This document shows positions 955 through 63,454 of a stretch of DNA of 64,000 nucleotides, in pieces (the first letter of the stretch is position 1; the number at the start of each line of letters is the position of its first letter). A program made the position numbers and the translations under genes. The notes beneath the pieces are model-generated. The model saw nothing but the letters and a program-made list of their open reading frames with translations. It was not told where the DNA came from and made no database searches. This DNA comes from Mobula hypostoma. Its lineage: Eukaryota. The DNA is taken from positions 102,736,001 through 102,800,000 of the forward strand of contig NC_086107.1 in NCBI RefSeq assembly GCF_963921235.1, written 5' to 3'.

Positions 955-1090
955 GTCAGGACTACGAAGGGTCTCGGCCCGAAACGTCGACTGTACCTCT
1001 TCCTATAGATGCCGCCTGGCCTGTTGCATTCACCAGCATTTTTTATGTGTGTTGCTTGAATTTCCAACACCTGCAGATTTCCTCATGTTT
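955..1090 (+). mobile_element. Penelope-derived short tail copy with partial hammerhead motif
   Basis: acgaagggtctcggcccgaaacgtcgactgt...ctgcagatttcc resembles the 3' end of the Penelope copies at 6523 and 30167. The first bases (cgtcaggact) are inverted. Confidence 0.75.
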
Positions 1091-1166: not shown

Positions 1167-1303
1167 GGGCAAAACACCACTGTCTCACAACAGCCTAATC
1201 CCAGCCCAGGTTCCCTATCAGTGGGTGAAAAATCCAACGCTTGGTGAATTCTGCTGCACAATGATAGGAAGAGCCAACATCAAAGAATCAAAAAGTGATA
1301 TTG
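1167..1303 (-). pseudogene. 28S rRNA fragment (peptidyl-transferase region), decayed
   Basis: ctgtctcac...gttccctatcagtgggtgaaaaatccaacgcttggtgaattctgctgcacaatgataggaagagccaacatc matches the reverse complement of conserved eukaryotic LSU rRNA, with CpG-type substitutions. Confidence 0.9.
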
Positions 1304-5265: not shown

Positions 5266-6619
5266 GTCTACAATCAATGACAGGAGTATTGATGTTCAGA
5301 GGAATCTTGGGGTCAAGTCTATAGCTCCCTTTAAGCAGCAACATAAGTGGCTAGGATGGTGAAGGAGGCGTACGACATGCTGGCTGTCACTAGCCGTCAC
5401 ATTGATTGTAAAACTCAGGGAGTCACGTTACAGTTATGCAAATCATTGTCGGAGGATTGTGAGCACTTCTGGTCACCGAGCCACTGGGAGGTTTGTGATT
5501 AAGTGAGAAAGAGTGCAGAAAAGATTCGCAGCAATGATGCCTGGATTGAAGGCCTTAAGTTGCATGTAAGGAGAGACTGGATAGGCCAGTACTGATTTGT
5601 CTTCTGTTTCGAGCCCTTTGCTATGTCTTTGCTCACATACAATCTCACTTCCCGACTCCTTGAAGACAAACAACCTTGCCTTTTCCCTGCCATCCTTTTT
5701 AAGTCACCAGAATACCTCCCCTGACTTTCCTCTGCTGGGTGCCTTCAAAACTTTCACCTCTGCCATGTTATTTTCAGCCGGTCTTGCCACTCTCTAGCTT
5801 CAGCTCTGAGTGGGTGTCCCTGTCTTCTGACACTGTGCCCTCAGATTCTAGACTCTCCTACTAATGGAAACATCCTCTTTACGTTCACTCTCTCCAGGCC
5901 TTTCAATATTTGGTAGGTTTCAATGAGGTCCCCCGTCCCCTCCCCACCCCAATACCACTGCCTTCTGAACTCCACTGAGTACAGGCCCAGAGCCATCAAA
6001 TGCTCCTCATACATTAAGCCTTTCATTGGCTGTTGTCATGAAATTGGCTGTCTCATCCTGCTGAAACTCCTCCTTGCAACAGCTTGCCACTGTACTTTAT
6101 GAATAGTCGCACTGTTCTCAAATTGCTCAGTCACTGTACAAGCAGTTCTCTAACCTGGCTACACATATCGATGGTTCTTTACTAACGCTGGATTTGGAAC
6201 ACGGTTTCTCGTAACACTTCACGCTGGTGTGAACCTCTGGCCAGCTCACCTCTTTGCAGGTCTCAACCCACGGAGGCCCCTGCCAGCCCTTCTGTAATTC
6301 ACACCTCTCTGCTCTCGCATTTCCCATCCATCACAATGTTCACTTGTAGACCCACATTGCACACTCTCGGACCGTCCTGACCCACATTCAAATCCTTCAA
6401 TATTGCAAATCCACGACTCTCAAAGAACGCACTCTGTTCTCTTTGTGTCTATGAAGGTTTTGTTTTTAAGATTACACACTCACGTTGCAAACTCACTTCT
6501 GAAAGCATCATGTTTAGCTGCCAACAACAGGAATTCTGCAGATGCTGGAAATTCAAGCAACATACATCAAAGTTGCTGGTGAACGCAGCAGGCCAAGCAG
6601 CATCTATAGGAAGAGGCGC

Positions 6620-6655
6620 AGTCGACGTTTCAGGCCGAGACCCTTCGTCAGGACT
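6620..6655 (-). ncRNA. Minimal type I hammerhead ribozyme motif in the Penelope 3' region
   Basis: Sense AGUC-CUGACGA-AGG(gucucgg)CCU-GAAA-CGUC-GACU: complete core, helix I AGUC/GACU, palindromic ACGU helix III. Confidence 0.85.
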
Positions 6656-7286
6656 AACTGAAGGAAGAGTGAGTAAGGGATTTGAAAGCTGGAGGGGGAG
6701 GGGGAGATGCAAAATGATAGGAGAAGACAGGAGGGGGAGGGATAGAGCCGAGAGCTGGACAGGTGATAGGCAAAAGGGGATACGAGAGGATCATGGGACA
6801 GGAGGTCCGGGAAGAAAGACAAGGGGGGGGGTGACCCAGAGGATGGGCAAGAGGTATATTCAGAGGGACAGAGGGAGAAAAAGGAGAGTGAGAGAAAGAA
6901 TGTGTGCATAAAAATGAGTAACAGATGGGGTACGAGGGGGAGGTGGGGCCTTAGCGGAAGTTAGAGAAGTCGATGTTCATGCCATCAGGTTGGAGGCTAC
7001 CCAGACGGAATATAAGGTGTTGTTCCTCCAACCTGAGTGTGGCTTCATCTTTACAGTAGAGGAGGCCGTGGATAGACATGTCAGAATGGGAATGGGATGT
7101 GGAATTAAAATATGTGGCCACTGGGAGATCCTGCTTTCTCTGGCGGACAGAGCGTAGATGTTCAGCAAAGCGGTCTCCCAGTCTGCGTCCGGTCTCACCA
7201 ATATATAAAAGGCCACATCGGGAGCACCGGACGCAGTATATCACCCCAGTCAACTCACAGGTGAAGTGATGCCTCACCTGGAAGGA

Positions 7287-8312
7287 CTATTTGGGGCCCT
7301 GAATGGTGGTAAGGGAGGAAGTGTAAGGGCATGTGTAGCACTTGTTCCGCTTACACGGATAAGTGCCAGGAGGGAGATCAGTGGGGAGGGATGGGGGGGA
7401 CGAATGGACAAGGGAGTTGTGTAGGGAGCGATCCCTGCGGAATGCAGAGAGAAGGGGGGAGGGAAAGATGTGCTTAGTGGTGGGATCCCGTTGGAGGTGG
7501 CAGAAGTTACGGAGAATAATATGTTGGACCCGGAGGCTGGTGGGGTGGTAGGTGAGGACCAGGGGAACCCTATTCCTAGTGGGGTGGTGGGAGGATGGAG
7601 TGAGAGCAGATGTACGTGAAATGGGGGAGATGCGTTTAAGAGCAGAGTTGATAGTGGAGGAAGGGAAGCCCCTTTCTTTAAAAAATGAAGACATCTCCCT
7701 CGTCCTAGAAAGAAAAGCCTCATCCTGAGAGCAGATGCGGCGGAGACGGAGGAATTGCGAGAAGGGGATGGCGTTTTTGCAAGAGACAGGGTGAGAAGAG
7801 GAATAGTCCAGATAGCTGTGAGAGTCAGTAGGCTTATAGGAGACATCAGTGGATAAGCTGTCTCCAGAGACAGAGACAGAAAGATCTAGAAAGGGGAGGG
7901 AGGTGTCGGAAATGGACCAGGTAAACTTGAGGGCAGGGTGAAAGTTGGAGGCAAAGTTAATAAAGTCAACTAGTTCTGCATGCGTGCAGGAAGCAGCGCC
8001 AATGCAGTCGTCGATGTAGCGAAGGAAAAGTGGGGGACAGATACCAGAATAGGCACGGAACATAGATTGTTCCACAAACCCAACAAAAAGGCAGGCATAG
8101 CTAGGACCCATACGGGTGCCCATAGCTACACCTTTAGTTTGGAGGAAATGGGAGGAGCAAAAGGAGAAATTATTAAGAGTAAGGACTAATTCCGCTAGAT
8201 GGAGCAGAGTGGTGGTAGAGGGGAACTGATTAGGTCTGGAATCCAAAAAGAAGCGTAGAGCTTTGAGACCTTCCTGATGGGGGATGGAAGTATATAAGGA
8301 CTGGACATCCAT
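7287..8312 (-). pseudogene. Penelope-like reverse transcriptase core ORF fragment
   Basis: 341-aa ORF: MDVQSLYTSIP...QTKGVAMG...RYIDD...LPFLD...YKPT. Confidence 0.9.
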
Positions 8313-8762
8313 GGTGAAAATAAAGCGGTGGGGGCCAGGGAACTTAAAATCATCAAAAAGTTTAAGAGCGTGAGAAGTGTCACGAACATAGGTCGGAAGG
8401 GATTGAACAAGGGGTGATAAAACAGTGTCGAGGTATGCAGAAACGAGTTCGGTGGGGCAGGAGCAAGCTGAGACAATAGGTTGGCCAGGACAGGAAGGTT
8501 TGTGGATCTTGGGTAGGAGGTAGAAACGGGAAGTGCGGGGTGTGGGATCTATAAGGTTGGTAGCAGTGGATGGGAGATCCCCTGAGCGGATAAAGTCGGT
8601 GATAGTGTGGGAGACAATGGCCTGGTGCTCCTTAGTGTGGTCACGATCGAGGGGTAAATAAGAGGAGTATCCGCGAGTTGTCGCTGTGCCTCGGCAAGGT
8701 AGAGGTCAGTACGCCAGACGACAACAGCACCCCCCTTATCAGCGGGTTTAATAGTAAGGTTA

Positions 8763-9059
8763 GGATTAGTGCGGAGGGAGTGGAGAGCAGAGCGTGGATT
8801 AGTGCGGAGGGAGTGGAGAGCAGAGCGTGGATTAGTGCGGAGGGAGTGGAGAGCAGAGCGTGGATTAGTGCGGAGGGAGTGGAGAGCAGAGCCTGGATTA
8901 GTGCGGAGGGAGTGGAGAGCAGAGCGTGGATTAGTGCGGAGGGAGTGGAGAGCAGAGCGTGGATTAGTGCGGAGGGAGTGGAGAGCAGAGCGTGGATTAG
9001 TGCGGAGGGAGTGGAGAGCAGAGCGTGGATTAGTGCGGAGGGAGTGGAGAGCAGAGCGT
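8763..9059 (-). repeat. 33-bp tandem repeat, 9 copies, at the Penelope 5' truncation point
   Basis: (ggattagtgcggagggagtggagagcagagcgt)x9 with one substitution; reads RSALHSLRTNP in the element frame. Confidence 0.95.
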
Positions 9060-21192: not shown

Positions 21193-24100
21193 TACGTGTG
21201 ATAAATAAGTCTCAATCTGAATCTATAGGTGGACATTAATACTGGTTATGCACATTTATTGTTAACTGAGAGGTTAAGAGATTCTCCAGCTTTGTCAGTT
21301 GTTACTTATTGCTTTGTAAACAGGTTTGGAAATCTAAAATAAAATCAGAAAATGTTGCAAATACTTAGGAGGTCAGTCTGCATCTGTGGAGACAGAAACA
21401 TCCTTCAGAATACATATCACCTCTCTGTTTATTGATTGATTCAGATACAGCATGGACTAGTCCTTCTGGCCCTTTCAGCCTCGCTGCCCAGCAATCCTCG
21501 ATTTAACCCTTGTCTAATCACAGGATGATTTACAATGACCAATTAACCTACCAACCGGTAGGTCTTTGGACTGTGGGAGGAAATCAGAGCTCCTGGAGGA
21601 AAGCCATGCAGTTTTGGGAAGAACGTACAAACTCCTTACAAGCAGTGGTGGGAATTGAACCTGGGTCGCTGGTACCATAAAGCGTGGTGCTAACCACTAC
21701 GCCACCGTGCCACACTGAGATACACTCACATTTGTGATTTGGTTCTCATCCCTGACTTCACCACTCATGATCCTTTCCCAATTTATTTGCTGCCCCCACC
21801 ATCAATGGTGAAACATATAAATTAGGATGGTGCTGGAGTGTTAGGGCGTATTCTTAAGTTAGGGTATATAGTAAATATTTACTTCACCAGCAACCAATCT
21901 TCAGACTTGAACACGGATTGTAGTTTAAATTTAAAATGCAGCCCCGAACAATAGTTTTCCTGGAGCTGTAGACTGGAGTTCATTGCAAAACAGACAATGC
22001 TGATTAACATACATTTTGGGTGTCTGGAGTGTGGGTGTGAAGAAGGAGGTGTGTGAAAACTATATGTAACTCAAAGGAAGCATTGTAGATACATTGTTAC
22101 TATAGAATTGTCCTGCTGTTATGTTGGATTTTTAGCATATAAAAATGTTATATAATATCAGTTCAAGAGGCCTCTTCCTCCAAAACCGTCCCATTTTGTT
22201 GAACAAAACACTTCAATATCCACTAGCTTCAGTGTCTCTCTGGTAACTTTGTTCATGTTACAACAGGTGAAACTGTACCTGCTTACAGTCTCTTTATTTA
22301 ATGAAGTTAATACCAACTTTGGGAGCGGTCCAGAAAAGATTTGCTATGCTAATTCCTGGGATGAGAGGGTTGGCTGACCACAAATGGCTGAGTAAAACTA
22401 GACCTGTATTCTGTGCAGGTTAGAAGACAAGGGGTGATTTTATTGAAACATATGTAGGTCCTAAGAGGCAGGGAAGGGTAGGTGCTAAGATAGTTCCAGA
22501 GGTAGAGGAGTCTACAAGATAAATACGCAGTTTTATGGAGACATCGGTAAGAGGTAGTACTTCAAGAAGGTGGCATGCATTATTATAGACTCTCTATGCA
22601 CTTCTACCATTGGGAAGGAGGTAGAAGAGTCTGAAGACCCACACTCAATAATTCAGGAACATCTTCTTCCCCTCTGCCTTCAGATTTCTGAACGGTCCAT
22701 GAACCCATGAATACTACCTCTTTCGTGCTATTTATTTATCTTTGTATTTATAGTCATTTTCATATCTTGCACCGCAAAACCACAAATTTCGTGACATATG
22801 TTTAGTAGTTCAATGGTTCCATTTAACATTAGAGAACATATACAGTATACAACCTGAAATTCTTACTCTCCTCAGACATCCACAAAAACAGAAGAGTGCC
22901 CCAAAGAATGAGTGACAGGAAAAAAGTTAGAACCCCAAAGCCCCCTTCACCCTCCCCCCAGTGATACACAAGCAGTAGCAAAGCGTCAACCCTCCCCCAC
23001 TTACTTCAGCAAAAAGCATCAGCACCCACCACCCACATATATCGGTGATAATAAACCTAATTCCAACTCTGATTTCAGGAATCCTCTAAGGAGATTGTGG
23101 AAACTAGATGTCTGGAACTATCTGAAGAGAAGCTAGGTGACTTTGAATGATCGGGAAATGAAGGGCTATGCGGCACAGAGATGAGCTGAGGTCTGTAGCA
23201 GATCAGCTATTGCATAGAAGGGCAGGCTTGACATACAAGCTTGTCTACTGCTCCCATTTTGTTATGTGTACTCAGCTCTGAATTGCCCTCTCTAAATCTT
23301 TCTGCCTCTTCTTCTTCCTTTCAGAACTCCCATAACACCTACTTTGAACGTGAGCCCTAATATCTCCTCACGTGATCTGAAGTTGTTTATTCTTGTTTGA
23401 AAATGGCAGAAAATGTTGGGAATACTCAGCAAGTCGGGGCAGTGTCAGTGAAGAGAGAAAAATAATGACTGTTTCCTTCACAGAATCCCACATTACGACC
23501 AGACTTGTTCATCATCATCCATGGGTCTATCCATGTTTGATCAGCAGGACACACCCACTAAACGTGGTGGCATTGTGATGTACACTCAGAATGGAGTGGC
23601 CCTGGGAGTCCTTTACCTTCAGCTTCGTGGACTTCTGACACATGTCAAACGTGTGCACGGAAACCTCCCCCCAATTTCTTCTGACCCCTCTCGCTCAGCT
23701 GATGAATCATCTGCCCTCCATGTTTGAAGAAAACTTCAGGATGGTAGGAACACAATGGGAGATCTATAATGTCTTTCACCAAGAAGAGTTTAGTAGCCCC
23801 GTTGCCTTGAAGAGCACAAATCCAAACGGTCTCGGGGCACAATACATTGGGACATCAGCAAATGTTTATATCAGTAATCCCTATGATCACCAGTATATAA
23901 TCAGCCAATTTCTGTTTTAGTAGATAAATTAGCTCTCTTGAGCACATCAAACAAATCAGACCCCTGCTGGCTTTCTGAGCTGCATCAAAACATGTTGTGT
24001 GTCAGAAACATGCCTCATTTGGGTCACGTGACCAAAACTGAGCGTGAGAAAAAAAGTTGTCCCTGCTGGACATTTCACAGAGCTGGAGTTGTATTTATAA

Positions 24101-24298
24101 CACCAGGACATACACTCAGTGGCCACTTTATTAGGTACACTCAGTGTATTGTGCAGATCAAGATATATGCTTCGATGTTCAAAAAGTTCAGAATTCGAAG
24201 TAAATTTTATTATCAGAGTACATTTATGTCACCACATACAACCCTGAGGTTCATTTTTCTGCGGGCATACTCAGCAAACCGAGAGAATAGTAACTGTA

Positions 24299-24427
24299 AA
24301 CAACAGGAATTCTGCAGATGCTGGAAACTCAAGCAACACACACCAAAGTTGCTGGTGAACGCAGCAGGCCAAGCAGCATCCACAGGAAGAGGCGCAGTCG
24401 ACGCCCCAGGCCGAGACCCCTCGTCAG
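24299..24427 (-). mobile_element. Short Penelope tail insertion carrying 9 A-to-G changes
   Basis: Aligns without gaps to 6523-6651; TSD agtaactgta (24289-24298, 24426-24435). Confidence 0.9.
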
Positions 24428-24589
24428 TAACTGTAAACAGGATCAATGAAAGATCAAGTAGAGCACAGAAGACAACAAGCTGTACAGATGAGGAAATAAT
24501 GGCTGGAAAAGACGTTAGAGCAGTTGGTTTGTTACGTTTGTTGAAGGTTGTATAACCAAGCCACGGTCTAAAATGTTGGTTGCACTTAC

Positions 24590-24694
24590 AGTTAAACATG
24601 GCATCATGATTTCTTGCTCATTGATTAAATCATAATCGCCACGGCTGTACTTCAGTAGTAATCTGTTTCTAGAATTTTCAGTTGATTGAACTTT
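24590..24694 (-). other. Candidate 105-bp exon, phase 0-0
   Basis: ttgcag acceptor after a pyrimidine-rich tract; gtaagt donor; open frame KVQSTENSRNRLLLKYSRGDYDLINEQEIMMPCLT. Confidence 0.35.
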
Positions 24695-25591
24695 CTGCAA
24701 ATTCTTAAAGAACAAAGTTCAAGTAAAAAGACTACAGCAACATCAGGATTTCAAAATGGCTTATGGCTAATGCAGTCATTTAAAAATGCTGTTACTGAGA
24801 GAAATATGGAAGCCAGGAGCAGAACAAATTTCCATAATATCAAAAAGAACTAAGTCTTAGTAATGCTGACTGGGATACAACCACTAACCTTGAGCTGTAC
24901 TACCAGTAATTCATGAAATCTAGAACATGGAACATAGAAGAGTATAGCACAGTACAGGCATTTTGTCCCACAAACATATCTTTGCAGAACTCCATGAGTC
25001 ACAGACCTCCAATCAGAATATGATCCATCTACTATCACCCTCTGCCTTGTGTGGGCAAGCCAGTTCCAAATCCACACAGTTTTCCCTGGATCTCATGCCT
25101 TCTGACTTTCAGATGAACTTACACCTTACTATCCACTGCTCTACCTTCATCAATTTGTTTTGTTACTTCCTCGAAAACATCAATCAGGCTCGTGAGCAAA
25201 GCCATGCTGACTATTCCTAATCAGACTCTGCTTCCCCAAATGCTCATAAATCCTGTCTCTAAGAATTCTCTCCAATAGTTTGCCTACCAGTAAAGTTTGC
25301 TGAACATGTACCAACTTGGCTTAAGTCAAATACAAAAGTATTCAGTCTATTATTAGCGGTGCTCTCAACTTCCTAAGCCCTAAACTCTACAAACCTTTCC
25401 AGCTCTCTGCTCTAAAATGATCATTGAAACCTCTGACCAAGCTTTCACTCATATTTCCTAGTGCAGTTCTGAATTGAACTCCACCTGCCATTTCTCAGCA
25501 CAGTTGTTCCCAACATGGTTCAGTACCAAATTTTGTTTGATACTGTTCACATGAAGCACCTGGGCCTTTATGTCAACCCTTTATCAACACA

Positions 25592-27500: not shown

Positions 27501-30166
27501 GTAATAGCAGGGAGGAGCTCTGGATGTGAGATTCTGGATCTTCTTATGTTTGACATCTTTTAACATCTGAACTTCCATTGCACGTGGAAGCCACTGGCAA
27601 CACTGGGATGTACTATTGCTGATTGCATTTAAACAGGAGAGCCAATTAAAAGTAAGTCACATATTTGTTGTTTAATTATTATTAATTCATTTTCTCAGGA
27701 TGTGGGAGTTACCAACAAGATTAGCACTTATCACACGTTCTTAATTCTGCTGACTGGTGACTCACTCGGCTATTTCAGAGGATATTTAAGAAGTCAATTT
27801 CATATTGCAGTGAGTTAGAAGTCACACCCAGTAAGGTAAAGTGGAGGATTTAAGAACAGTGATTGAAAATCACAGTTCCTATTTCTGATGACCAAAGTTT
27901 ATTGTTATAAGCACAAGTACATCTATGCATAGGTGCAAAGAAAAAACATACTTGCAGGAGCATCACAGGCATATAGATTCAGACACACAAGAAAAACATG
28001 AATTAAGCATAAATTGTACACAATTTTTTACAAATATAATTAGAAGACAAGGAAGTCCTTTCAACACACACACACACACAAAATGCTGGTGGAACTCAGC
28101 AGGCCAGGCAGCATCTATGGAAAAAAGTACAGTCGACGTTTCAGGCTGAGACCCTTCAGCAGGACCGTTGTCGTGCAAGGTGGTCATGGTGTTGCCGAAC
28201 AGAAGTAATAATTAAGGTTGTGCAGGTTGGTTCAAGAGCTGAATGGTTGATGGGACTTGAACTGGAGTTGTGGGACTTCAGGCTTCTGTACTTCACGCCT
28301 GATGAATTTGGTATGGCCCGGACGTTGGGGGTCTCGATGATAGATGCTTCCTTCACGTAGTTATCGCCAGTGGCAGGGAAAGATGTGTCCGTGAGGTATT
28401 GGCTGAGTCCACAACTCTCTGCGGGCTTCATCATGTGTACCAAGATACAGGGAAAAAACTTTTGTTTTTGTGTACCATACCGATAGATCGTTCCATTAAC
28501 ACATCAGGGTAGAAAAGAAAACCGTTTCCCTTTCCCACAGATTTTGCCTGAGCTCCTGAGAGTTTACAGCATTCTCTGTTTCTGCCTCTGTTAAAAGGAG
28601 CACTTTTAGTAATAGACTAAGACGACTGCACTGCTCCAAAGAGCGCTATATGAGGCCATTCGTACCCTCGGCCATTAGGCTCTGTAATGAGTCAATCTAT
28701 AGCCAGGGAAGTGATGACTCCTCCCCCTCCTGTTAGACTGTTTGTGGTAACTTATTTTTTATTCTTTCTTATTTCTCTTGTAATATTCATATCTGTGCAC
28801 TTGTAATGCTACTGTGACACTGTAATTTGCTTTGGGATCGATAAAGTATCTATCTATCTTTTTATTCCTTGCCGGTGTCACCAACTGAAGCGTTGCAGGA
28901 CATCAGAAATTGAGACAGCGGTGTATGTTGCTGTCAAAATAAATGACGCCGCAGATTGTAACGTCGAAACAGCAAGCTGTTGGTCTCCCTCTGGCTGTGG
29001 CAGGAGCGATACCTCTCTCTCCCTCATTAGTGAGAGACAGAGCCTGTGAGATGTCCACGTGTTGAGATGGACAGTAGCTTTTTTTTTGATGGAATCATGG
29101 TCTCTGGGAGCTTTGCTATTGTGAATGGTGGGTGGTGGTGGGGGGGTCTGATGATTTTGCTGGAGAAAGTAGTGGAGGGGGAGAGGGTAGTGTTTATGAT
29201 TTTTCTGCTGCTTGGGCGTGGGAGGAGGGGTGACTTTGGGGTTCTAATGTTTTTTTCTGTCATTCATTCTTTGGGGTTTTCTTCTGTTTCAGGGATGTCT
29301 GTGAAAAGAAAGAATTTCAGGTACACCGTGAACATTCTCAGATATTAAATTGAACCACTGAAAAACTCTGCATTCACTAAAAAACAGTCCAGTAGCTCCA
29401 GGAATACTCTTACTCGGGCAAGCTTATTTTTTAAATTCCATTTTATATAACGAATGATGATAGGGACATTTAAGAGGCCTTTTGACAGGCTGGGGATGGA
29501 GAGATTTAGACTATATACAGGCAGCTGGGATTATTTATATTTAAATTAACACCGTGCTTGGCACAGATATTGTGGGCTAGAGGGCCTGATCTGTGTTGTA
29601 CTGTTTAATATTCTAATTTCCACGGTTTACAGCTTCTCCAGAGGGACTTGAACTCTGGACCAATAATCCAGCATCAGGCTGCTTTTCCAAGAATTTTTAT
29701 TGCCTCAAGCAATGTGAAAGTGTTTGTAAGAATACTAGAAATAGAAGCGGCGGGTTGGTCTAATAGCCAAGGAAAATGTTCCATTATTCAATAAGATCAT
29801 GGTTGGGCCTTACTTCTACTTTCCTGACTGAAGATGAAGGTGAGATAATATTAGGTATGTCACCGTCCAGGGAAGGCAAGCTGTATTTGGATTGGTTGGA
29901 GATGAACCAAGTGATTGACTGAAAGATCCAGACAGGGTAGATGTAAAGAGGTGTCTCCTCTTGAGGAGAATCTAGAAGGGGGATGGTGTTGTCACTATTT
30001 AAAGTAAGTGGTTGCCTACTTAAGGCAAAGATGATGCTCTTCCATTGTTATTAAAATATTCAAAGTTCAAAGTAAATTTATCAGAGTACATATATGACCC
30101 CATATACAACCCTGAGATTCATTTTCCTGTGGGCATACTCAGCAAAACTACAGAATAGTAACTATA

Positions 30167-32130
30167 AACAACAGGAATTCTGCAGATGCTGGAAATTCAA
30201 GCAACATACATCAAAGTTGCTGGTGAACGCAGCAGGCCAAGCAGCATCTATAGGAAGAGGCGCAGTCGACGTTTCAGGCCGAGACCCTTCGTCAGGACTA
30301 ACTGAAGGAAGAGTGAGTAAGGGATTTGAAAGCTGGAGGGGGAGGGGGAGATGCAAAATGATAGGAGAAGACAGGAGGGGGAGAGATGGAGCCGAGAGCT
30401 GGACAGGTGATAGGCAAAAGGGGATACGAGAGGATCATGGGACAGGAGGTCCGGGAAGAAAGACGGGGGGGGGGTGACCCAGAGGATGGGCAAGAGGTAT
30501 ATTCAGAGGGACAGAGGGAGAAAAAGGAGAGTGAGAGAAAGAATGTGTGCATAAAAATGAGTAACAGATGGGGTACGAGGGGGAGGCGGGGCCTTAGCGG
30601 AAGCTAGAGAAGTCAATGTTCATGCCATCAGGTTGGAGGCTACCCAGACGGAATATAAGGTGTTGTTCCTCCAACCTGAGTGTGGCTTCATCTTTACAGT
30701 AGAGGAGGCCGTGGATAGACATGTCAGAATGGGAATGGGATGTGGAATTAAAATGTGTGGCCACTGGGAGATCCTGCTTTCTCTGGCGGACAGAGCGTAG
30801 ATGTTCAGCAAAGCGGTCTCCCAGTCTGCGTCCGGTCTCACCAATATATAAAAGGCCACATCGGGAGCACCGGACGCAGTATATCACCCCAGTCGACTCA
30901 CAGGTGAAGTGATGCCTCACCTGGAAGGACTGTTTGGGGCCCTGAATGGTGGTAAGGGAGGAAGTGTAAGGGCATGTGTAGCACTTGTTCCGCTTACACG
31001 GATAAGTGCCAGGAGGGAGATCAGTGGGGAGGGATGGGGGGGACGAATGGACAAGGGAGTTGTGTAGGGAGCGATCCCTGCGGAATGCAGAGGGGGGGGG
31101 AGGGAAAGATGTGCTTAGTGGTGGGATCCCGTTGGAGGTGGCGGAAGTTACGGAGAATAATATGTTGGACCCGGAGGCTGGTGGGGTGGTAGGTGAGGAC
31201 CAGGGGAACCCTATTCCTAGTGGGGTGGTGGGAGGATGGAGTGAGAGCAGATGTATGTGAAATGGGGGAGATGCGTTTAAGAGCAGAGTTGATAGTGGAG
31301 GAAGGGAAGCCCCTTTCTTTAAAAAATGAAGACATCTCCCTCGTCCTAGAATGAAAAGCCTCATCCTGACAGCAGATGTGGCGGAGACGAAGGAATTGCG
31401 AGAAGGGAATGGCGTTTTTGCAAGAGACAGGGTGAGAAGAGGAATAGTCCAGATAGCTGTGAGAGTCAGTAGGCTTATAGGAGACATCAGTGGATAAGCT
31501 GTCTCCAGAGACAGAGACAGAAAGATCTAGAAAGGGGAGGGAGGTGTCGGAAATGGACCAGGTAAACTTGAGGGCAGGGTGAAAGTTGGAGGCAAAGTTA
31601 ATAAAGTCAACTAGTTCTGCATGCGTGCAGGAAGCAGCGCCAATGCAGTCGTCGATGTAGCGAAGGAAAAGTGGGGGACAGATACCAGAATAGGCACGGA
31701 ACATAGATTGTTCCACAAACCCAACAAAAAGGCAGGCATAGCTAGGACCTATACGGGTGCCCATAGCTACACCTTTAGTTTGGAGGAAATGGGAGGAGCA
31801 AAAGGAGAAATTATTAAGAGTAAGGACTAATTCCGCTAGACGGAGCAGAGTGGTGGTAGAGGGGAACTGATTAGGTCTGGAATCCAAAAAGAAGCGTAGA
31901 GCTTTGAGACCTTCCTGATGGGGGATGGAAGTATATAAGGATTGGACATCCATGGTGAAAATAAAGCGGTGGGGGCCACGGAACTTAAAATCATCGAAAA
32001 GTTTAAGAGCGTGAGAAGTGTCACGAACATAGGTCGGAAGGGATTGAACAAGGGGTGATAAAACAGTGTCGAGGTATGCAGAAACGAGTTCGGTGGGGCA
32101 GGAGCAAGCTGAGACAATAGGTCGGCCAGG
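30167..32130 (-). mobile_element. Second Penelope-like element, 5'-truncated, near-identical to 6523-8490
   Basis: RT RYIDD and GIY-YIG; frameshift in the G-run at ~31095; 17-bp TSD acagaatagtaactata (30150-30166, 32131-32147). Confidence 0.95.
30264..30299 (-). ncRNA. Minimal hammerhead ribozyme motif
   Basis: Identical to 6620-6655. Confidence 0.85.
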
Positions 32131-34997
32131 ACAGAATAGTAACTATAACAGGATCAATGAAAGATCAACCAGAGTGCAGAAGACAACAAACTGCGCAAAC
32201 ACAAATATAAATAAATAGCAATAAATAACGAGAACATGAGATAATGAGAGAAAGAGTCCTTACAGTTAGATCACTGGTTGTGGAAACATCTCAATGGATG
32301 GGCAGGTTAGTTATCCCCCTTTGTTCAGGTGCCTGATGGTTGAGGGGTAGAAACTGTTCTTGAACCTGGTGGTGTGAGTCCTGAGGCTCTTGCACCTTCT
32401 ACCTGATGGCAGCAGCGAGAGAAGAGCACGGCCTGGGTGGTGGGGAGCTCTGATGAGGGATGCTGCTTTCCTACGACAGCGTTTCATGTAGATGCGCTCA
32501 ATGGTTGGGAGAGCTTTACCCGTGATGTACTGGGCCAAATCCACTACTTTCTGAAGGATTTTCCGTACAAAGGCATTGGTGTTTCCGTACCAGGCCGTAA
32601 CGCAGCCAGTCAATACACCCTTCGCTACACATCTATAGAAGTTTGCCAAGGTTTCTGATGTCATGCTGAATCTCCACAGACCCAAAAGGAAGTAGCGGTG
32701 CTGTCATGCCTTCTTTGTAATTGCATTTACACGCTGGGTCCAGGAGAGATCCTCTGAAATAGTAACAACCAGAAATTTAAAGTTGCTGACCCTCTCCACC
32801 TCTGATGAGTACTGGCTCATGGACCACTGGTTTCCCTCTCCTGAAGTCAACTATCAGTTCCCTGGTCTTGCTGACATTGAGTGAGAGGAATCTCCCTCCT
32901 GTATGCTGATTCGTCACCACCTTTGATACGGCCCACAACAGTAGCGTCATCAGCAAACTTGCATATGGTGTTGGAGCTGTACTTAGCCACACAGTCACGG
33001 GTGTAAAGCGAGTAGAGCAGGGGGCTAAGTACATACCTCTGTGGTGCTCCTGTGCTGATGGAGATCATGGAGGAGATAATTTTGCCAAGCTGAACTGACT
33101 GGGGTCTACAAGTGAAGATATCCAGGATCCAATTGCACAAGGAGGTATTGGGGCCAACGTCTTGGAGCTTATCGATAAGTTTTGAGGGGATGATTGTATT
33201 AAATGTTGAGCTGTAATCGATGATGTGCATCCTGATGCATGCACCTTTGATGTCCAGGTGTTCCAGGGTTGTGTGAAGAGCCATGAGATAGCATCTGCTG
33301 TAGACCAGTTGCTCCGGTGGGCAAATTGGAGCGGATCCAAGTCGACTCTCAGGCAGGAGCTGATATATTTCATCACCAACCTCTCAAAGACCTTCATCAC
33401 TGCGGATGTAAGTGCAACTGGGCAATGGTTATTGAGGCAGATCACCACTGTTTGCTTGGATACCGATATGACGGAAGCCTGCTCGAAGCAGGTGTGTACC
33501 TCACACTGCCGAAACGAGAGGTTAAAGATCTCACTGAACACACCAGCCAGTTGGTCAGCACAAGTCTTAGTACATGGCCAGGTACCCAATCTGACCCGAA
33601 TGCTTTTCTTTGATTCCTTGCAATATGTCAAAAGGGAAAAAAAGTTGTGAAAGAAAATACTGGAAAAACTTACAGTTTATAACTTATAATAAGCTTCAAC
33701 TCCCACAATCCGCTATTTTCTGTCCATATAATGCCTTGGCAACCCTATTAGTGTGATCATAAAAAATACAAGCAGAACTATGCTCCAGAAGCACGTACTA
33801 CCATTCAGTAAGATCACAGTCCTCCTGATTCTTGGCTTCAGGTCTACTTCCCTTCCTGCTGTCCATAACCTACAACTCCTCTGTAGACCAAACATGTGCC
33901 AATCTTGGCCTTAACTTAGGTCAGCTGTCTGACCTGACACCTCCCTCCCCCACCATAGAGTAGCTCCAGTCAATTGGGGTCTTTTTCCCACCCTAAATTC
34001 CAGCATCTGCGGTCTTGTTACTCCAGTTTAAAAATAAAAGTCAAAGTCGAGTTTGTCATATGAACAAGTACATACTGTATATCCACGGCTGCAATGAGAA
34101 CTTACTTGCAACAGAATCATATTATAATTGCATCAAATATGCAATATTCATAAGAAAGTCATAAATTATGCACAATTTTTACCAGAAAGAACAGAATTAC
34201 TGTGGGGTGGTAGGATACTGTAGTGGTTAGCGCAATGCTTTGTAGTACTAGCGAATTCCCGCCGCTGCCAGTAGGAACTTGAACGTTCTTCCTGCGACCG
34301 CAGGTTTCCTCCAGGTGCTCTGGTTTCCTCCCACAGTCCTACCGGTCGGTAGGTTAATTGGTCATTGTAAATTGTCCTGTGGTTTGGCTGGGATTAAATC
34401 AGGGTGTTTCTGGGTGGCGCAGAATGGCTCTTCAGTCCGTGCTCTATCTCAATAAATTTTTAAAAAACGAACAAAAAAATCTACTGTGGTGCAAGTGGCT
34501 GTAGTGTTGCTGTAATAGCTTTGCTGGTTTGTTCAAGAAAGGAAGTAGCTGGTTGTGCGGGAGACTTCAGGCCACTGCACTTCCTGCCCCAAGAGAGTTA
34601 CTACAAGATGGCAAGTCCCATAAGACAGAAATCTTCAAGTCAAGTCAAGTTACTTTTTATTGTCATTTTGACCATAACTGCTGGTACAGAACACAGTAAA
34701 AATGAGACAACGTTTTTCAGGACCATGGTGCTACATGAAACAATACAAAAACTACACTGAACTATGTAAAACAACACAAAAACTAGACCACAGACCTACC
34801 CAGGACTGCATAAAGTACACAGAACAGTGCAGGCATTACAATAAATAATAAACAAGACAATAGGCACAGCAGAGAGCAGTAGGTTGGTAGTCCCATGGCT
34901 TGGGGGAAAAACTGTTACATAAATAAACAGCCGAATGGCAGTGAACTGATGTCGCCTATCCTCATTGCAGCTACTGATACTGATTATATATATTTGT

Positions 34998-35125
34998 GTC
35001 CTGACGAAGGGTCTCGGCCTGAAATGTCGACTGTACCTCTTCCTAGAGATGCTGCCTGGCCTGCTGCATTCACCAGCAACTTTGATGTGTGTTGCTTGAA
35101 TTTCCAGCATCTGCAGAATTCCTTG
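34998..35125 (+). mobile_element. Short Penelope tail copy starting at the hammerhead
   Basis: gtcctgacgaagggtctcggcctgaaatgtcgac...ctgcagaattcct. Confidence 0.85.
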
Positions 35126-62541: not shown

Positions 62542-63454
62542 CACATCAAAGTTGCTGGTGAAAGCAGCAGGCCAGGCAGCATCTACAAGAAGAGTTTCAG
62601 TCGACATTTTGGGCCGAGACCCTTCGTCAGGACTAACTGAAGGAAGAGTTAGTAAGAGATTTGAAAGTGGGAGGGGGAGGGGGAGATCCAAAATGATAGG
62701 AGAAGACAGGAGGGGGAGGGATGGAGCCAAGAGTTGGACAGGTGATTGCCAAAGGGGGTATGAGAGGATCATGGGACAGGAGATCCAGGGAGAAAGACGG
62801 GGGGGGGCGGGGGAAACAGAGGATGGGCAAGGGGTATAGTCAGAGGGACAGAGGGAGAAAAAGGAGAGTGAGAGAAAGAATGTATGTATAAAAATAAATA
62901 ATGGATGGGGTACTAGCGGGAGATGGGGCATTAGCGGAAGTTAGAGAAGTCGATGTTCATGCCATCAGGTTGGAGGCTACCCAGACGGCATATAAGATGT
63001 TGTTCCTCCAACCTGAGTGTGGCTTCATCTTTACAGTAGAGGAGGCCATGGATGGACATATCAGAATGGGAATGGGTCGTGGAATTAAAACGTGTGACCA
63101 CTGGGAGATTCTGCTTTCTTTGGCGGACAGAGCGTAGGTGTTCAGCAAAGCGGTCTCCCAGTCTACGTCGGGACTCGCCAATATATAGAAGGCCACATCC
63201 CCTTTGCCAATCATCTGTCCAACTCTTGGCTCCATCCCTCCCCCTCCTGTCTTCTCCTATCATTTTGGATCTCCCCCTCCCCCTCTCACTTTCAAATCTC
63301 TTACTAACTCTTCCTTCAGTTAGTCCTGACGAAGGGTCTCGGCCTGAAACGTCGACTGAAACTCTTCCAATAGATGTTGCCTGGCCTGCTGCATTTACCA
63401 GCAACTTTGATGTGTGTTGCTTGAATTTCCAGCATCTGCAGAATTCCTGTTGTT
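62542..63454. mobile_element. Penelope-like insertion with inverted structure
   Basis: Minus arm 62542-63198 (GIY-YIG end + 3' region) joined to plus arm 63199-63454; 14-bp TSD gatatttgtaatct (62528-62541, 63457-63470). Confidence 0.92.
63322..63357 (+). ncRNA. Minimal hammerhead ribozyme motif, intact
   Basis: agtc CTGACGA agggtctcggcct GAAA cgtc gact. Confidence 0.85.

Follow-up and report, generated by a model that had tools for sequence, protein, structure and literature searches.

The sequence studied here lies in a window of 64,000 nucleotides, the whole stretch of DNA that was analyzed, and consists of the short 3′ tail of a Penelope-like element (PLE) residing within a SINE-like repeat (Table 1). 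Other copies of this SINE lack the insert and join the base corresponding to 24297 directly to that corresponding to 24436. Since the SINE paralogues are continuous across the site and a 13-bp target-site duplication borders the element, the tail represents a true insertion. The window also harbors two long copies of the element without the alterations described below. The second of them occupies the same insertion position in another copy of the same SINE, where it is flanked by a duplication of its own (30152-30170 and 32133-32150). In the first, the longer ORF matches RVT_1 with an E-value of 3.1e-5 and a score of 24.2 bits, which falls short of the curated cut-off (29.6 bits), and the ORF located directly 3′ of it on the same strand matches the GIY-YIG domain (PF01541) with 24.7 bits (cut-off 22.6). 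Because a reverse transcriptase (RT)-like region and a GIY-YIG domain occur together in the element, we assign it to the Penelope-like elements. Sites are numbered below on a sense reference of 878 nt, the reverse complement of window positions 6523-7400, in which the 129-nt tail corresponds to positions 750-878.

Table 1. Features of the focal insertion and of related element copies in the window
Feature	Position	Strand	Remarks
Focal 5′-truncated PLE tail	24299..24427	-	BLAST to long copy; nine A>G changes only
Region with all nine A>G sites	24328..24420	-	9 of the 16 A's within the span altered
Hammerhead core GAAA, GGGG in the focal copy	24404..24407	-	Reference 770-773; direct reading and description of minimal hammerheads in the available part of PMC4209133
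CUGACGA box	24421..24427	-	Extreme 5′ end of the focal copy
Left target-site duplication, 13 bp, GTAACTGTAAACA	24290..24302	.	End overlaps the 3′ end of the element via TGTT microhomology
Right target-site duplication	24427..24439	.	Base 24427 assignable to element or duplication
SINE-like host repeat, left part	24160..24302	.	Right part 24440-24482
Unaltered long PLE copy, reference	6523..8493	-	RT-like ORF 7287-8705(-), GIY-YIG ORF 6951-7286(-)
Second unaltered long PLE copy	30167..32134	-	98.7% identical to 6523-8493
Head-to-head inverted pair, older PLE copies	62543..63454	.	62543-63199 (-), 63197-63454 (+)

Pairwise comparison within the window aligns 24299-24427 to 6523-6651 and 30167-30295 without any gap over 129 nt. 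The latter two stretches do not differ from each other at a single position, and the focal copy deviates from both at exactly nine, each of which is a T-to-C change on the plus strand and hence an A-to-G change on the sense (minus) strand of the element. These sites are located at 24420, 24406, 24405, 24404, 24383, 24381, 24343, 24339 and 24328 (757, 771, 772, 773, 794, 796, 834, 838 and 849 in the reference). At all positions outside of these sites the focal copy equals the youngest copies. An initial annotation of the locus had described the ungapped match of 129 bp with nine T-to-C differences only and the conversion of a GAAA motif to GGGG. Both are reproduced by our alignment, the latter at reference positions 770-773. 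It had further argued that neutral decay would leave mixed changes. A>G makes up 9.7% of the 1,512 substitutions in 57 control copies, so that nine A>G changes out of nine correspond to a p-value of about 7e-10, and none of the 57 possesses six or more changes of one transition type that account for at least 80% of its changes. Chance is excluded as the cause of the cluster. The adjoining SINE sequence, when compared to other copies of the SINE, shows a mixed set of differences (two A>G, two T>C and one C>T in 79 scorable positions). The changed adenosines also share a sequence context: among the 23 A's of the tail, a 5′ A or U precedes seven of the nine changed ones compared to two of the 14 unchanged ones (Fisher p=0.0066), and the ADAR-like preference ascribed to the sites in the initial annotation is thus supported.

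Since the read contigs end at repeats and none of them spans 24132-24449, an assembly or sequencing artefact at the focal locus might be considered. Such an artefact would, however, need nine errors of the same type confined to the insert, although the unique flanks on either side (23008-24132 and 24449-24950) are covered by contigs identical to the window, and the same pattern would have to recur at the other loci, at least 11 in number, that are described below. We therefore regard its probability as practically negligible.

According to the initial annotation, one of the nine sites also varies in older copies. This is correct for 838, and it has to be extended to 834, as 834G and 838G are both standing states of older subfamilies. 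In addition, 849G is present in otherwise unaltered copies, some of which carry 838G together with 849G or 834G together with 838G. Hence, only six to seven of the nine can be regarded as securely new. These six or seven probably represent new edits, and the source of the copy may already have carried 834G, 838G and perhaps 849G. One could go further and regard all nine G's as the diagnostic bases by which a minor PLE subfamily, produced by normal mutation and then amplified, would be recognized. Many PLE subfamilies indeed differ at 793-796, 805, 833, 834 and 838; for instance, 50 of the 78 matches in which 794 and 796 are both non-A do not read G..G, and 1,729 matches, mostly from older subfamilies, are non-T at both 793 and 795. 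Yet these subfamilies display mixed substitutions including CpG transitions and transversions, in contrast to the otherwise youngest-type sequence of the focal copy. Its nine-site haplotype, moreover, occurs in a single copy in the assembly, the next match being 97% identical (among 40 scored of 2,939 candidates). The way in which runs of A's are replaced likewise argues against normal mutation. Where the A-run of the GAAA motif carries three non-A bases, these are GGG in all eight matches from six loci, and the same holds for the three full replacements of a second A-run (718-720), which amounts to GGG in 11 of 11 cases for both runs pooled. An ordinary subfamily origin is highly improbable in light of this evidence.

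The same kind of A>G-only cluster is found at at least 11 further loci, with 8-18 A>G changes next to 0-3 other changes in the tail, in copy sets which, like all those used here, were assembled from anchor matches or from copies similar to the focal one and hence are biased samples. All copies with GGG in the hammerhead motif bear additional A>G changes with hardly any change of another type (e.g. ten A>G and one other change, eight and two, or 15 and three). The 22-mer around GAAA has 18,573 matches in the genome, the first 100 of which read AAA in 98 and AAG in two cases. A genome-wide class with a strand-specific excess of A>G, by which the initial annotation had proposed to check its reading, is thus present, and it occurs on both strands, since inverted arms carry its mirror image, T>C. 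The recurring sites appear in non-nested combinations, with all four A/G states being found for 35 of 45 site pairs in 33 young copies picked by similarity to the focal copy.

The recurrence of sites bears on the possibility that the changes were largely inherited, i.e. that later copies stem from transcripts of a single edited copy, or of a few, and that the G's of the focal copy derive mostly from a small lineage in which the editing took place earlier. The focal copy shares eight of its nine sites with the C12 pair, and its 33-mer with 834G, 838G and 849G occurs at four loci, so that these copies may form a small lineage descending from a single edited source. Furthermore, copies that carry one to four of these G's but are otherwise unaltered are common among the best BLAST matches. 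Descent from such a source is nevertheless difficult to reconcile with the non-nested combinations, and the differences private to individual hyperedited copies are once more A>G in almost every case. Short 5′-truncated copies are also improbable as sources, and a second copy with all nine variants was not found among the 40 scored of 2,939 candidates, and the nine variants thus do not define the amplified subfamily that the initial annotation had considered as an alternative. We thus consider inheritance unlikely as the main origin of the changes.

Several side tests were carried out on the same matches. Patterns with two sites being non-A or non-T at 793-796 were rejected as clean controls because older subfamilies dominate them, and a test on T-runs was set aside since T's in the flanks bias it against T>C hyperedited copies. 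A test for the direction of change that would distinguish an APOBEC footprint gave A>G, as A is present in 98 of the first 100 of the 18,573 matches and in older subfamilies. An APOBEC-type G>A footprint with reversed direction was rejected on the grounds of this prevalence of A and of the G-run, for which none of three full replacements reads AAA.

The GAAA motif affected by the changes belongs to a putative hammerhead ribozyme, the core boxes of which are located within the last 130 nt of the element. Unaltered copies read CUGACGA-N13-GAAAC-GUC, which matches the hammerhead core (CUGANGA ... GAAA ... UH cleavage site). By direct reading, helix I would be formed by UUAGUC and GACUG (4-5 bp) and helix II by AGG and CCU (about 3 bp). 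Helix III would be very short and palindromic (ACGU), which suggests that the motif might act as a dimer. When compared to the minimal PLE hammerheads described in the available part of PMC4209133, the element has the CUGANGA and GAAA boxes, the GUC site, the short helix I and the very short palindromic helix III (ACGU) in common with them, and also the arrangement of motifs on opposite strands, often 100-700 bp apart in that description; minus/plus pairs 50-100 bp apart are numerous here among the first 100 of the genome matches and in the examined loci. It differs by its helix II of about 3 bp from the Schistosoma families, in which this helix comprises 7-8 bp (PMC4209133, available part). 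The same text states that PLE hammerheads often occur as inverted or tandem pairs, that the copies are often 5′-truncated and that minimal hammerhead forms are missed by the usual descriptors. The Rfam hammerhead models gave no match at the gathering score in the whole window and none at E<=10 in 6480-6760, and free-energy folding of monomer and dimer did not return a hammerhead fold. For the focal copy, the initial annotation had concluded that editing destroys the hammerhead. The core motif does read GGGG instead of GAAA, but the copy starts at the CUGACGA box and thus is devoid of the 5′ strand of helix I (UUAGUC, reference 744-749), for which reason it would not possess a working hammerhead in any case.

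Pairs of inverted copies allowed a closer look at the strand on which the changes reside. At one such locus (L031), three A>G changes on one arm and 13 T>C changes on the other all fall on one DNA strand. The same is true for two neighboring convergent copies on contig C80, of which L011b carries T>C at 42 of its 65 T's and L011a carries 18 A>G changes. Although the alignment of L011a extends over 1,630 nt, all of its 18 changes are located in the last 245 nt, within reference 634-838, the region facing L011b. The unique DNA adjoining L011b has one paralogue, found on contig C36. Identity between the two reaches 100% over a stretch of 163 nt and amounts to 93% over 679 colinear nt, in which a repeat of 229 nt is included; the adjoining unique sequence is essentially identical between C80 and C36 over about 450 nt. 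Ordinary copies share only 78-80% identity with the 229-nt repeat of L011b, and hence essentially all of the approximately 47 differences between C80 and C36 lie within the repeat. At C36, the first 23 nt of this repeat are unedited. The two loci come close to a parent and daughter pair, but could also be read as a change in place.

The latter reading, applied to the focal copy, would imply that the changes arose after the insertion of an unedited element, either by ADAR acting on the DNA strand of hybrids with the abundant transcripts of the family or by gene conversion with cDNA of an edited read-through transcript. In vitro, the DNA of DNA:RNA hybrids is open to editing by ADAR, and the roughly 47 changes that separate L011b from C36 amid nearly identical unique DNA would be expected under such a scenario, as would the alteration of the convergent L011a in the complementary region only and on the same DNA strand. 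A bold but possible account of the C80 locus is that edited RNA was copied back into the element already residing there. However, the homology to C36 starts 9 nt past the 3′ end of L011a, which fits a retrocopy made by template switching and is better explained by an RNA-mediated chimeric copy than by a duplication combined with an insertion at its very edge. Moreover, the L010 and L014 pairs carry identical A>G sets, each on the sense strand of its own arm and therefore on opposite DNA strands, which places the editing before the formation of the pairs. The SINE flank of the focal copy likewise shows no T>C cluster, with T>C accounting for two of its five differences in 79 positions. Hence, we judge a change in place at the focal locus to be decidedly unlikely.

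The inverted pairs also help to assess whether errors of the reverse transcriptase could have produced the pattern without any deaminase, e.g. through an imbalance of the nucleotide pool leading to rA:dC mispairs. The strand pattern would be identical in both cases, as A>G on the sense arm and T>C on the antisense arm of a hairpin template are expected either way. However, the C80/C36 pair shows over 600 nt of unique, A-rich DNA beside the repeat that are essentially unchanged, compared to 42 of 65 positions changed in the repeat. The confinement of the L011a changes to the end of its 1,630-nt copy points in the same direction, and the 5′ A/U preference together with the recurring sites fits ADAR. 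We accordingly grant this explanation a very slim chance.

In dsRNA formed by inverted repeats, about half of the adenosines become edited and a 5′ G is depleted among the edited sites. Counted by event over 11 copies, a 5′ A or U precedes 76 of 108 edited compared to 26 of 104 unedited A's, and on the antisense arms a 5′ G precedes 13 of 55 edited and 14 of 29 unedited ones (p=0.028). When each distinct site is counted once, no clear and no significant difference in the 5′ neighbor is seen between edited sites (T 9, C 8, A 6, G 6) and never-edited sites (C 16, T 10, G 7, A 6). The tail alone lacks a strong intrinsic fold (z = -0.10), which speaks for an antisense partner. That the changes stay within the repeat in the C80/C36 pair, and in L011a within the stretch opposite L011b, also fits a dependence on dsRNA. 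ADAR-family deaminase genes are present in the genome, as the A_deamin domain (PF02137) has matches at at least seven loci.

The focal copy is best explained by ADAR-type editing of dsRNA ahead of reverse transcription, and we assign this explanation a probability of roughly 0.7. The proposal of the initial annotation that an edited RNA was reverse-transcribed into the germline is supported by the genome-wide A>G set, by the neighbor preference and by the confinement of the changes to the repeat. The focal sequence would then be the retroposed, 5′-truncated 3′ tail of a young Penelope-like element. An ADAR-type enzyme would have deaminated adenosines of its RNA template during the pairing of this template with antisense RNA of the same family. 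The reverse transcriptase of the element would have read inosine as G, and target-primed integration into the SINE, accompanied by the 13-bp duplication, would have fixed the edits in heritable DNA. The type of change and its neighbor preference point to an ADAR as the enzyme, and we infer that the editing preceded the integration at the focal locus. The dsRNA partner was most likely provided by the head-to-head inverted pairs of the PLE family, which are very common, or else by sense and antisense transcripts pairing in trans. A more far-reaching idea starts from the recurrence of editing at favored sites that include the three catalytic adenosines (GAAA to GIII): the ADAR of the host might thereby switch off the putative self-cleavage in part of the element RNAs and influence which RNAs persist long enough to become reverse-transcribed. 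The initial annotation had likewise suggested that editing could serve as a defence or could block self-cleavage. We consider the far-reaching idea unlikely; if it were true, the genome would constitute a readable record of the interplay between a ribozyme and its editor.

To our knowledge, heritable ADAR footprints are hardly documented, and the fossil record of APOBEC in vertebrate retroelements is rich. Chimeric retrocopies that result from template switching of the reverse transcriptase have been described for L1. The C80 locus resembles them in that it joins, within 9 nt, the 3′ end of an element to the copy of a segment from another chromosome, and differs from them in that the putative reverse transcriptase is that of a PLE and that each of the two RNAs joined is hyperedited, in regions complementary to each other. 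Hyper-edits of Alu and other SINEs also arise from long dsRNA formed by inverted copies of an abundant repeat; we know of them from RNA only, whereas in our case the edited state has been written into new DNA copies. Such hyper-editing of inverted repeat pairs at the RNA level is described for Alu and other SINEs across Metazoa in the available parts of PMC4365171 and PMC5625713. Closer to the present findings are retroviruses with ADAR-linked A-to-G hyperediting, namely RAV-1, an avian leukosis virus, and HTLV-2/STLV-3 in culture (PMC8586724, available part). These likewise show deamination in dsRNA regions of an RNA that is later reverse-transcribed and clustered A>G changes in the DNA copy. 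Unlike these viruses, the element described here is a non-viral Penelope-like retrotransposon, the changes are fixed in a vertebrate germline assembly, and many loci share preferred sites and display the T>C mirror on inverted arms. The G-to-A footprints of APOBEC3 in endogenous retroviruses (ERVs) and retroelements (PMC4866542 and PMC2873906, available parts) resemble our clusters as strand-specific genomic records of a single type of change, but stem from C>U deamination on minus-strand cDNA rather than from A>G editing on RNA. A survey covering vertebrate ERVs reports that clusters of any type besides G>A/C>T were negligible, being 1,680-fold lower (PMC4866542, available part). The literature searched did not yield any account of Penelope-like copies with A>G hyperediting fixed in a germline, and the accessible portions of PMC3197674 and PMC5974252 contain nothing on the re-integration of edited RNA.

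If the findings are confirmed, the element, with its more than 18,000 copies and its abundance of inverted pairs, would serve as a natural system. The rate at which edited RNA is retroposed and the site preference of ADAR on a ribozyme-bearing RNA would become measurable, and one could examine if editing restrains the element, is a by-product or gives rise to new subfamilies. The C80/C36 pair provides a rare comparison between a source and a derived copy.

Sequencing runs of the species gave an additional observation on the focal sites. At 24328 and 24343, no excess of non-T bases was seen in two runs which we guess to be RNA, as none of the runs with matching sequence is registered as such. 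At 24381 and 24383 (reference 796 and 794), the non-T share of the summed contig depth reached 34-46% in these two probable RNA runs, whereas a run of DNA from this species gave 3-4%. These figures are a hint of live RNA editing at both sites, which a few highly expressed variant copies could explain as well. Within the window itself, the head-to-head pair of older PLE copies would give rise to a hairpin RNA if transcribed through.

The tail copy of a Penelope-like element (PLE) at 24299–24427 (129 bp, minus strand) aligns without gaps to 6523–6651 and to 30167–30295, which do not differ from one another, and deviates from both at nine positions, all of them T>C on the plus strand. As the sense strand of the element is the minus strand, these differences represent A>G changes. 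Direct comparison with both reference copies hence bears out the alignment and the nine same-type differences described in the initial annotation. In the numbering used here (ref; reverse complement of window 6523–7400, an 878-nt natural copy in which the tail is 750–878), the changed sites are 757, 771, 772, 773, 794, 796, 834, 838 and 849. The GAAA at 770–773 reads GGGG and seven of the nine sites are preceded by a 5′ A or U, again as annotated. Contigs assembled from reads match the window exactly on either flank, while none spans 24132–24449. The focal copy is a true insertion with target-site duplication (see table); it was inserted within a SINE-like repeat, and contigs of SINE paralogues connect 24297 with 24436, omitting 138 nt. 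We consider it likely (probability roughly 0.7) that editing took place before retroposition of this copy, and improbable that the changes arose in place after insertion. The annotated inference that an edited RNA was reverse-transcribed is supported, with corrections regarding the number of edits and the completeness of the hammerhead; a functional role of the editing is hypothetical.

The long copies 6523–8493 and 30167–32134 are 98.7% identical and possess two minus-strand ORFs, the first with a weak reverse transcriptase match under the curated cut-off (RVT_1, E=3e-5) and the second, following it, with a GIY-YIG endonuclease match over the cut-off. Since Penelope-like elements are characterised by this order of domains, the naming of the copy as a Penelope tail is correct. 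The tail of unchanged copies reads CUGACGA-N13-GAAAC-GUC, with an ACGU palindrome occupying the helix III position, a short helix II and a possible helix I of 4–5 bp formed by UUAGUC (744–749) and GACUG. This arrangement fits the "minimal" hammerheads of PLE terminal repeats, which, according to Cervera and de la Pena (PMC4209133), work as dimers and are often located 100–700 bp apart on opposite strands. The Rfam hammerhead models gave no match to the tail even at E≤10. The motif is best regarded as a probable minimal hammerhead. The CUGACGA box forms the start of the focal copy, in which the 5′ helix I strand is missing; this copy therefore could not encode a complete hammerhead whatever the edits did. 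Thus, of the proposal that editing destroyed the hammerhead, the change of GAAA to GGGG stands, but the structure was already incomplete; the change is relevant to the copied RNA and not to the dead DNA copy. Most short tail copies (many loci, L010–L038, and window 34998–35123 and 964–1089) start within ref 745–749, which coincides with the 5′ helix I strand. This narrow range, rather than a random spread of truncations, indicates that the ~130-nt tail acts as a discrete unit. Head-to-head inverted pairs of such 5′-truncated units are very common.

As controls we used 57 older copies from the window and from loci L069–L098. A>G accounts for only 9.7% of their 1,512 substitutions, which include many CpG transitions and transversions, and in none of the 57 does a single transition type account for at least six and at least 80% of the changes. 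Under the control rate, nine A>G out of nine has a p of about 7e-10; neutral decay, which yields mixed and CpG-type changes, does not account for the focal copy. Among the 23 A's of the focal tail, a 5′ A/U precedes 7/9 changed versus 2/14 unchanged residues (Fisher p=0.0066), and seven of the nine A's with a favourable neighbour are changed. Counted per event, a 5′ A/U precedes 76/108 edited versus 26/104 unedited A's; with each distinct site counted once, no clear difference was seen. A 22-mer spanning the GAAA, each of its three A's being written as R, has 18,573 matches in the genome, the first 100 listed comprising 98 AAA and two AAG, and older subfamilies likewise keep A at these positions. 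A is the ancestral state, which excludes an APOBEC-type G>A change read in the reverse direction.

Where all three A's of the GAAA are replaced, the sequence reads GGG in 8/8 matches, representing six loci of which two are inverted pairs. Were the sites independent, we calculate that about 0.006 triple hits would be expected among the 18,573 copies, taking ~0.7% A>G per site from 2/100 copies. Full replacement of the A-run 718–720 likewise gives GGG in 3/3 cases, and that of a G-run gives AAA in 0/3. All GGG copies carry additional A>G and next to no other changes, a pattern shared by three loci found by other routes outside the 22-mer matches (L033, L068 and L022). A strand-specific A>G class with few other changes is thus present genome-wide, with at least 11 sequence-verified loci besides the focal copy and several further ones inferred solely from identity values or pattern matches; it makes up about 0.1% of copies as a lower bound.

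Location and properties of features and A>G-clustered loci. For single positions, entries give the fraction of summed contig depth made up by letters other than the family's T, for two same-species runs of guessed RNA type and one DNA run.
Feature	Location	A>G	Other changes	Details
Direct repeat, 13 bp	24290–24302 and 24427–24439			GTAACTGTAAACA; flanks focal copy
Target-site duplications of two PLE inserts	24290–24302; 30152–30170 with 32133–32150			13 bp; ~19 bp; independent
L010	C12 (pair)	10	1	
L013	C1	8	2	
L014	C40	10	2	
L015	C96	15	3	
L011a	C80	18		all in ref 634–838 of 1,630-nt alignment
L033	C18	15		
L068	C18	9	1	
L022	C22	6	4	
Ref 796	24381			probable RNA 45%, 34%; DNA 3.2%
Ref 794	24383			probable RNA 46%, 41%; DNA 3.6%
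Ref 849	24328			probable RNA 0.7%, 0.6%; DNA 1.8%
Ref 834	24343			probable RNA 3.8%, 3.3%; DNA 8.9%

The PLE family contains real subfamilies. Positions 794 and 796 are both non-A in 78 matches, 28 with G..G and 50 with other letters, the latter being older copies whose changes are of mixed type (769C, 783T/784A at a CpG, 805C, 833T, 834G, 838G); 793 and 795 are both non-T in 1,729 matches, nearly all from older subfamilies. As 834G and 838G are standing states, and 838G+849G as well as 834G+838G are present in otherwise unchanged young copies, only about 6–7 of the nine annotated edits are securely new. The hot sites of young copies form non-nested sets, such as {757,773,794,796}, {772,773,796}, {771,794,796}, {796,838,849} and, without 794 or 796, {771,772,773,779 + upstream sites}. 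All four A/G combinations occur in 35/45 site pairs among 33 young copies, which were picked for their resemblance to the focal copy, so that frequencies are not readable, and of which two rows represent one locus. For a stepwise tree, the same non-CpG sites would have to undergo A>G many times over; such sets are exactly what recurrent editing at preferred sites predicts. Together with the nine-site haplotype, found nowhere else among the 40 of 2,939 candidates scored (best other match 97% identical), this speaks against an amplified subfamily. Inheritance from an edited source copy within a small lineage would agree with the C12 pair, which has eight of the focal sites, and with the occurrence of the focal 33-mer carrying 834G, 838G and 849G at four loci, but we regard it as unlikely.

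Mirror-image clusters are also present. In an inverted pair on contig C21 (L031), one arm carries three A>G and the other 13 T>C, all being A>G when read on one DNA strand, as would be expected if both arms of a hairpin transcript had been edited. By contrast, the two arms of the C12 pair, and likewise those of the C40 pair, carry identical A>G sets on their own sense strands; therefore, editing preceded pair formation. On contig C80, L011b lies 1.3 kb from L011a in convergent orientation and shows T>C at 42/65 T's. The 1.3-kb spacer is unique DNA except for a SINE fragment; its single paralogue, on contig C36, shows 97% identity over 951 nt, corresponding to 975 nt on the C36 side and hence indicative of an indel. 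The first 163 nt of the paralogue are 100% identical, and the two loci are colinear over 679 nt (93% identical), the final 229 nt being L011b. Since L011b is 78–80% identical to ordinary copies, the repeat holds roughly all 47 differences between C80 and C36, with hardly any in about 450 nt of the spacer. At C36, the initial 23 nt of the repeat are unedited where C80 has four G's, the C36 homology starts 9 nt past the 3′ end of the hyperedited L011a, and a counterpart of L011a was not seen at the C36 paralogue. By inference, C80 represents a chimeric retrocopy: a C36-locus transcript with the antisense repeat would have paired with element RNA through ~220 nt, both strands of the duplex would have been edited, and template switching would have copied them one after the other to give C80. 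Whatever the route, the comparison shows that hypermutation is limited to the part able to form dsRNA, which argues against reverse-transcriptase error or any process acting along the whole template.

Four further copies of the genome (C68:36717257, C21:176648233, C91:23275030 and C5:161599700) are 84–90% identical to L011b versus 78–80% for ordinary copies, and are probably more antisense-edited members with common preferred sites. A sister PLE subfamily is represented on C80 (L011:2903–3129; sense end ...GAATTCCTCGTGTTTGCATAG), and a 35-place pattern intended as a unique anchor has 1,969 genome matches at ≤2 mismatches.

The genome encodes ADAR-family deaminase domains at no fewer than seven loci. 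The tail has no intrinsic fold (z = −0.10), which points to antisense RNA as the dsRNA partner. Contig depths, combined with the guessed library type, hint that 794 and 796 (the latter in a UAG context) are edited today, although expression of a few variant copies could be misleading in this family.

Avian retroviruses, as well as HTLV-2/STLV-3 in culture, are described as showing A>G hyperediting that is linked to ADAR and preserved by reverse transcription (reviewed in PMC8586724). The freely accessible literature searched contained no account of Penelope-like copies with A>G hyperediting fixed in the germline. G>A footprints left by APOBEC enzymes in genomic retroelement copies are well established. 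Clusters other than G>A and the complementary C>T were negligible in a vertebrate ERV survey (PMC4866542), G>A/C>T clusters dominated over A>G/T>C in IAP and human retroelements (PMC2873906), and no L1 RNA editing was found in cell culture (PMC5224506).

Regarding the surroundings, PLE insertions of 129 bp and 1,971 bp occupy the same position in two copies (~84% alike) of one SINE family and share the identical 3′ junction AACA|ACAGG, which points to either a preferred target or priming through TGTT microhomology. A 111-nt eukaryotic LSU rRNA fragment at 1176–1286 (minus strand; Rfam 94.8 bits, model positions 2875–2984) lies ~90 bp from the older tail copy at 964–1089 (plus strand) and may be part of a chimeric retrocopy. 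The segment 24299–24347, at the very end of the tail (~50 nt), is common to a much more abundant family; there, summed contig depth reaches 4–7 million versus ~1.4 million further in, and loose contig ends at 24347 run on with a different consensus. Immediately upstream of the long PLE copy lies a tandem array (8763–9059, period 66 bp, copies 99–100% alike). A 793-nt contig of a related species matches 24483–24950 and continues for 328 letters beyond the match; as 24483 is the 3′ edge of the SINE hosting the focal insert, the SINE, and hence the PLE insert, may be absent from the orthologous site.
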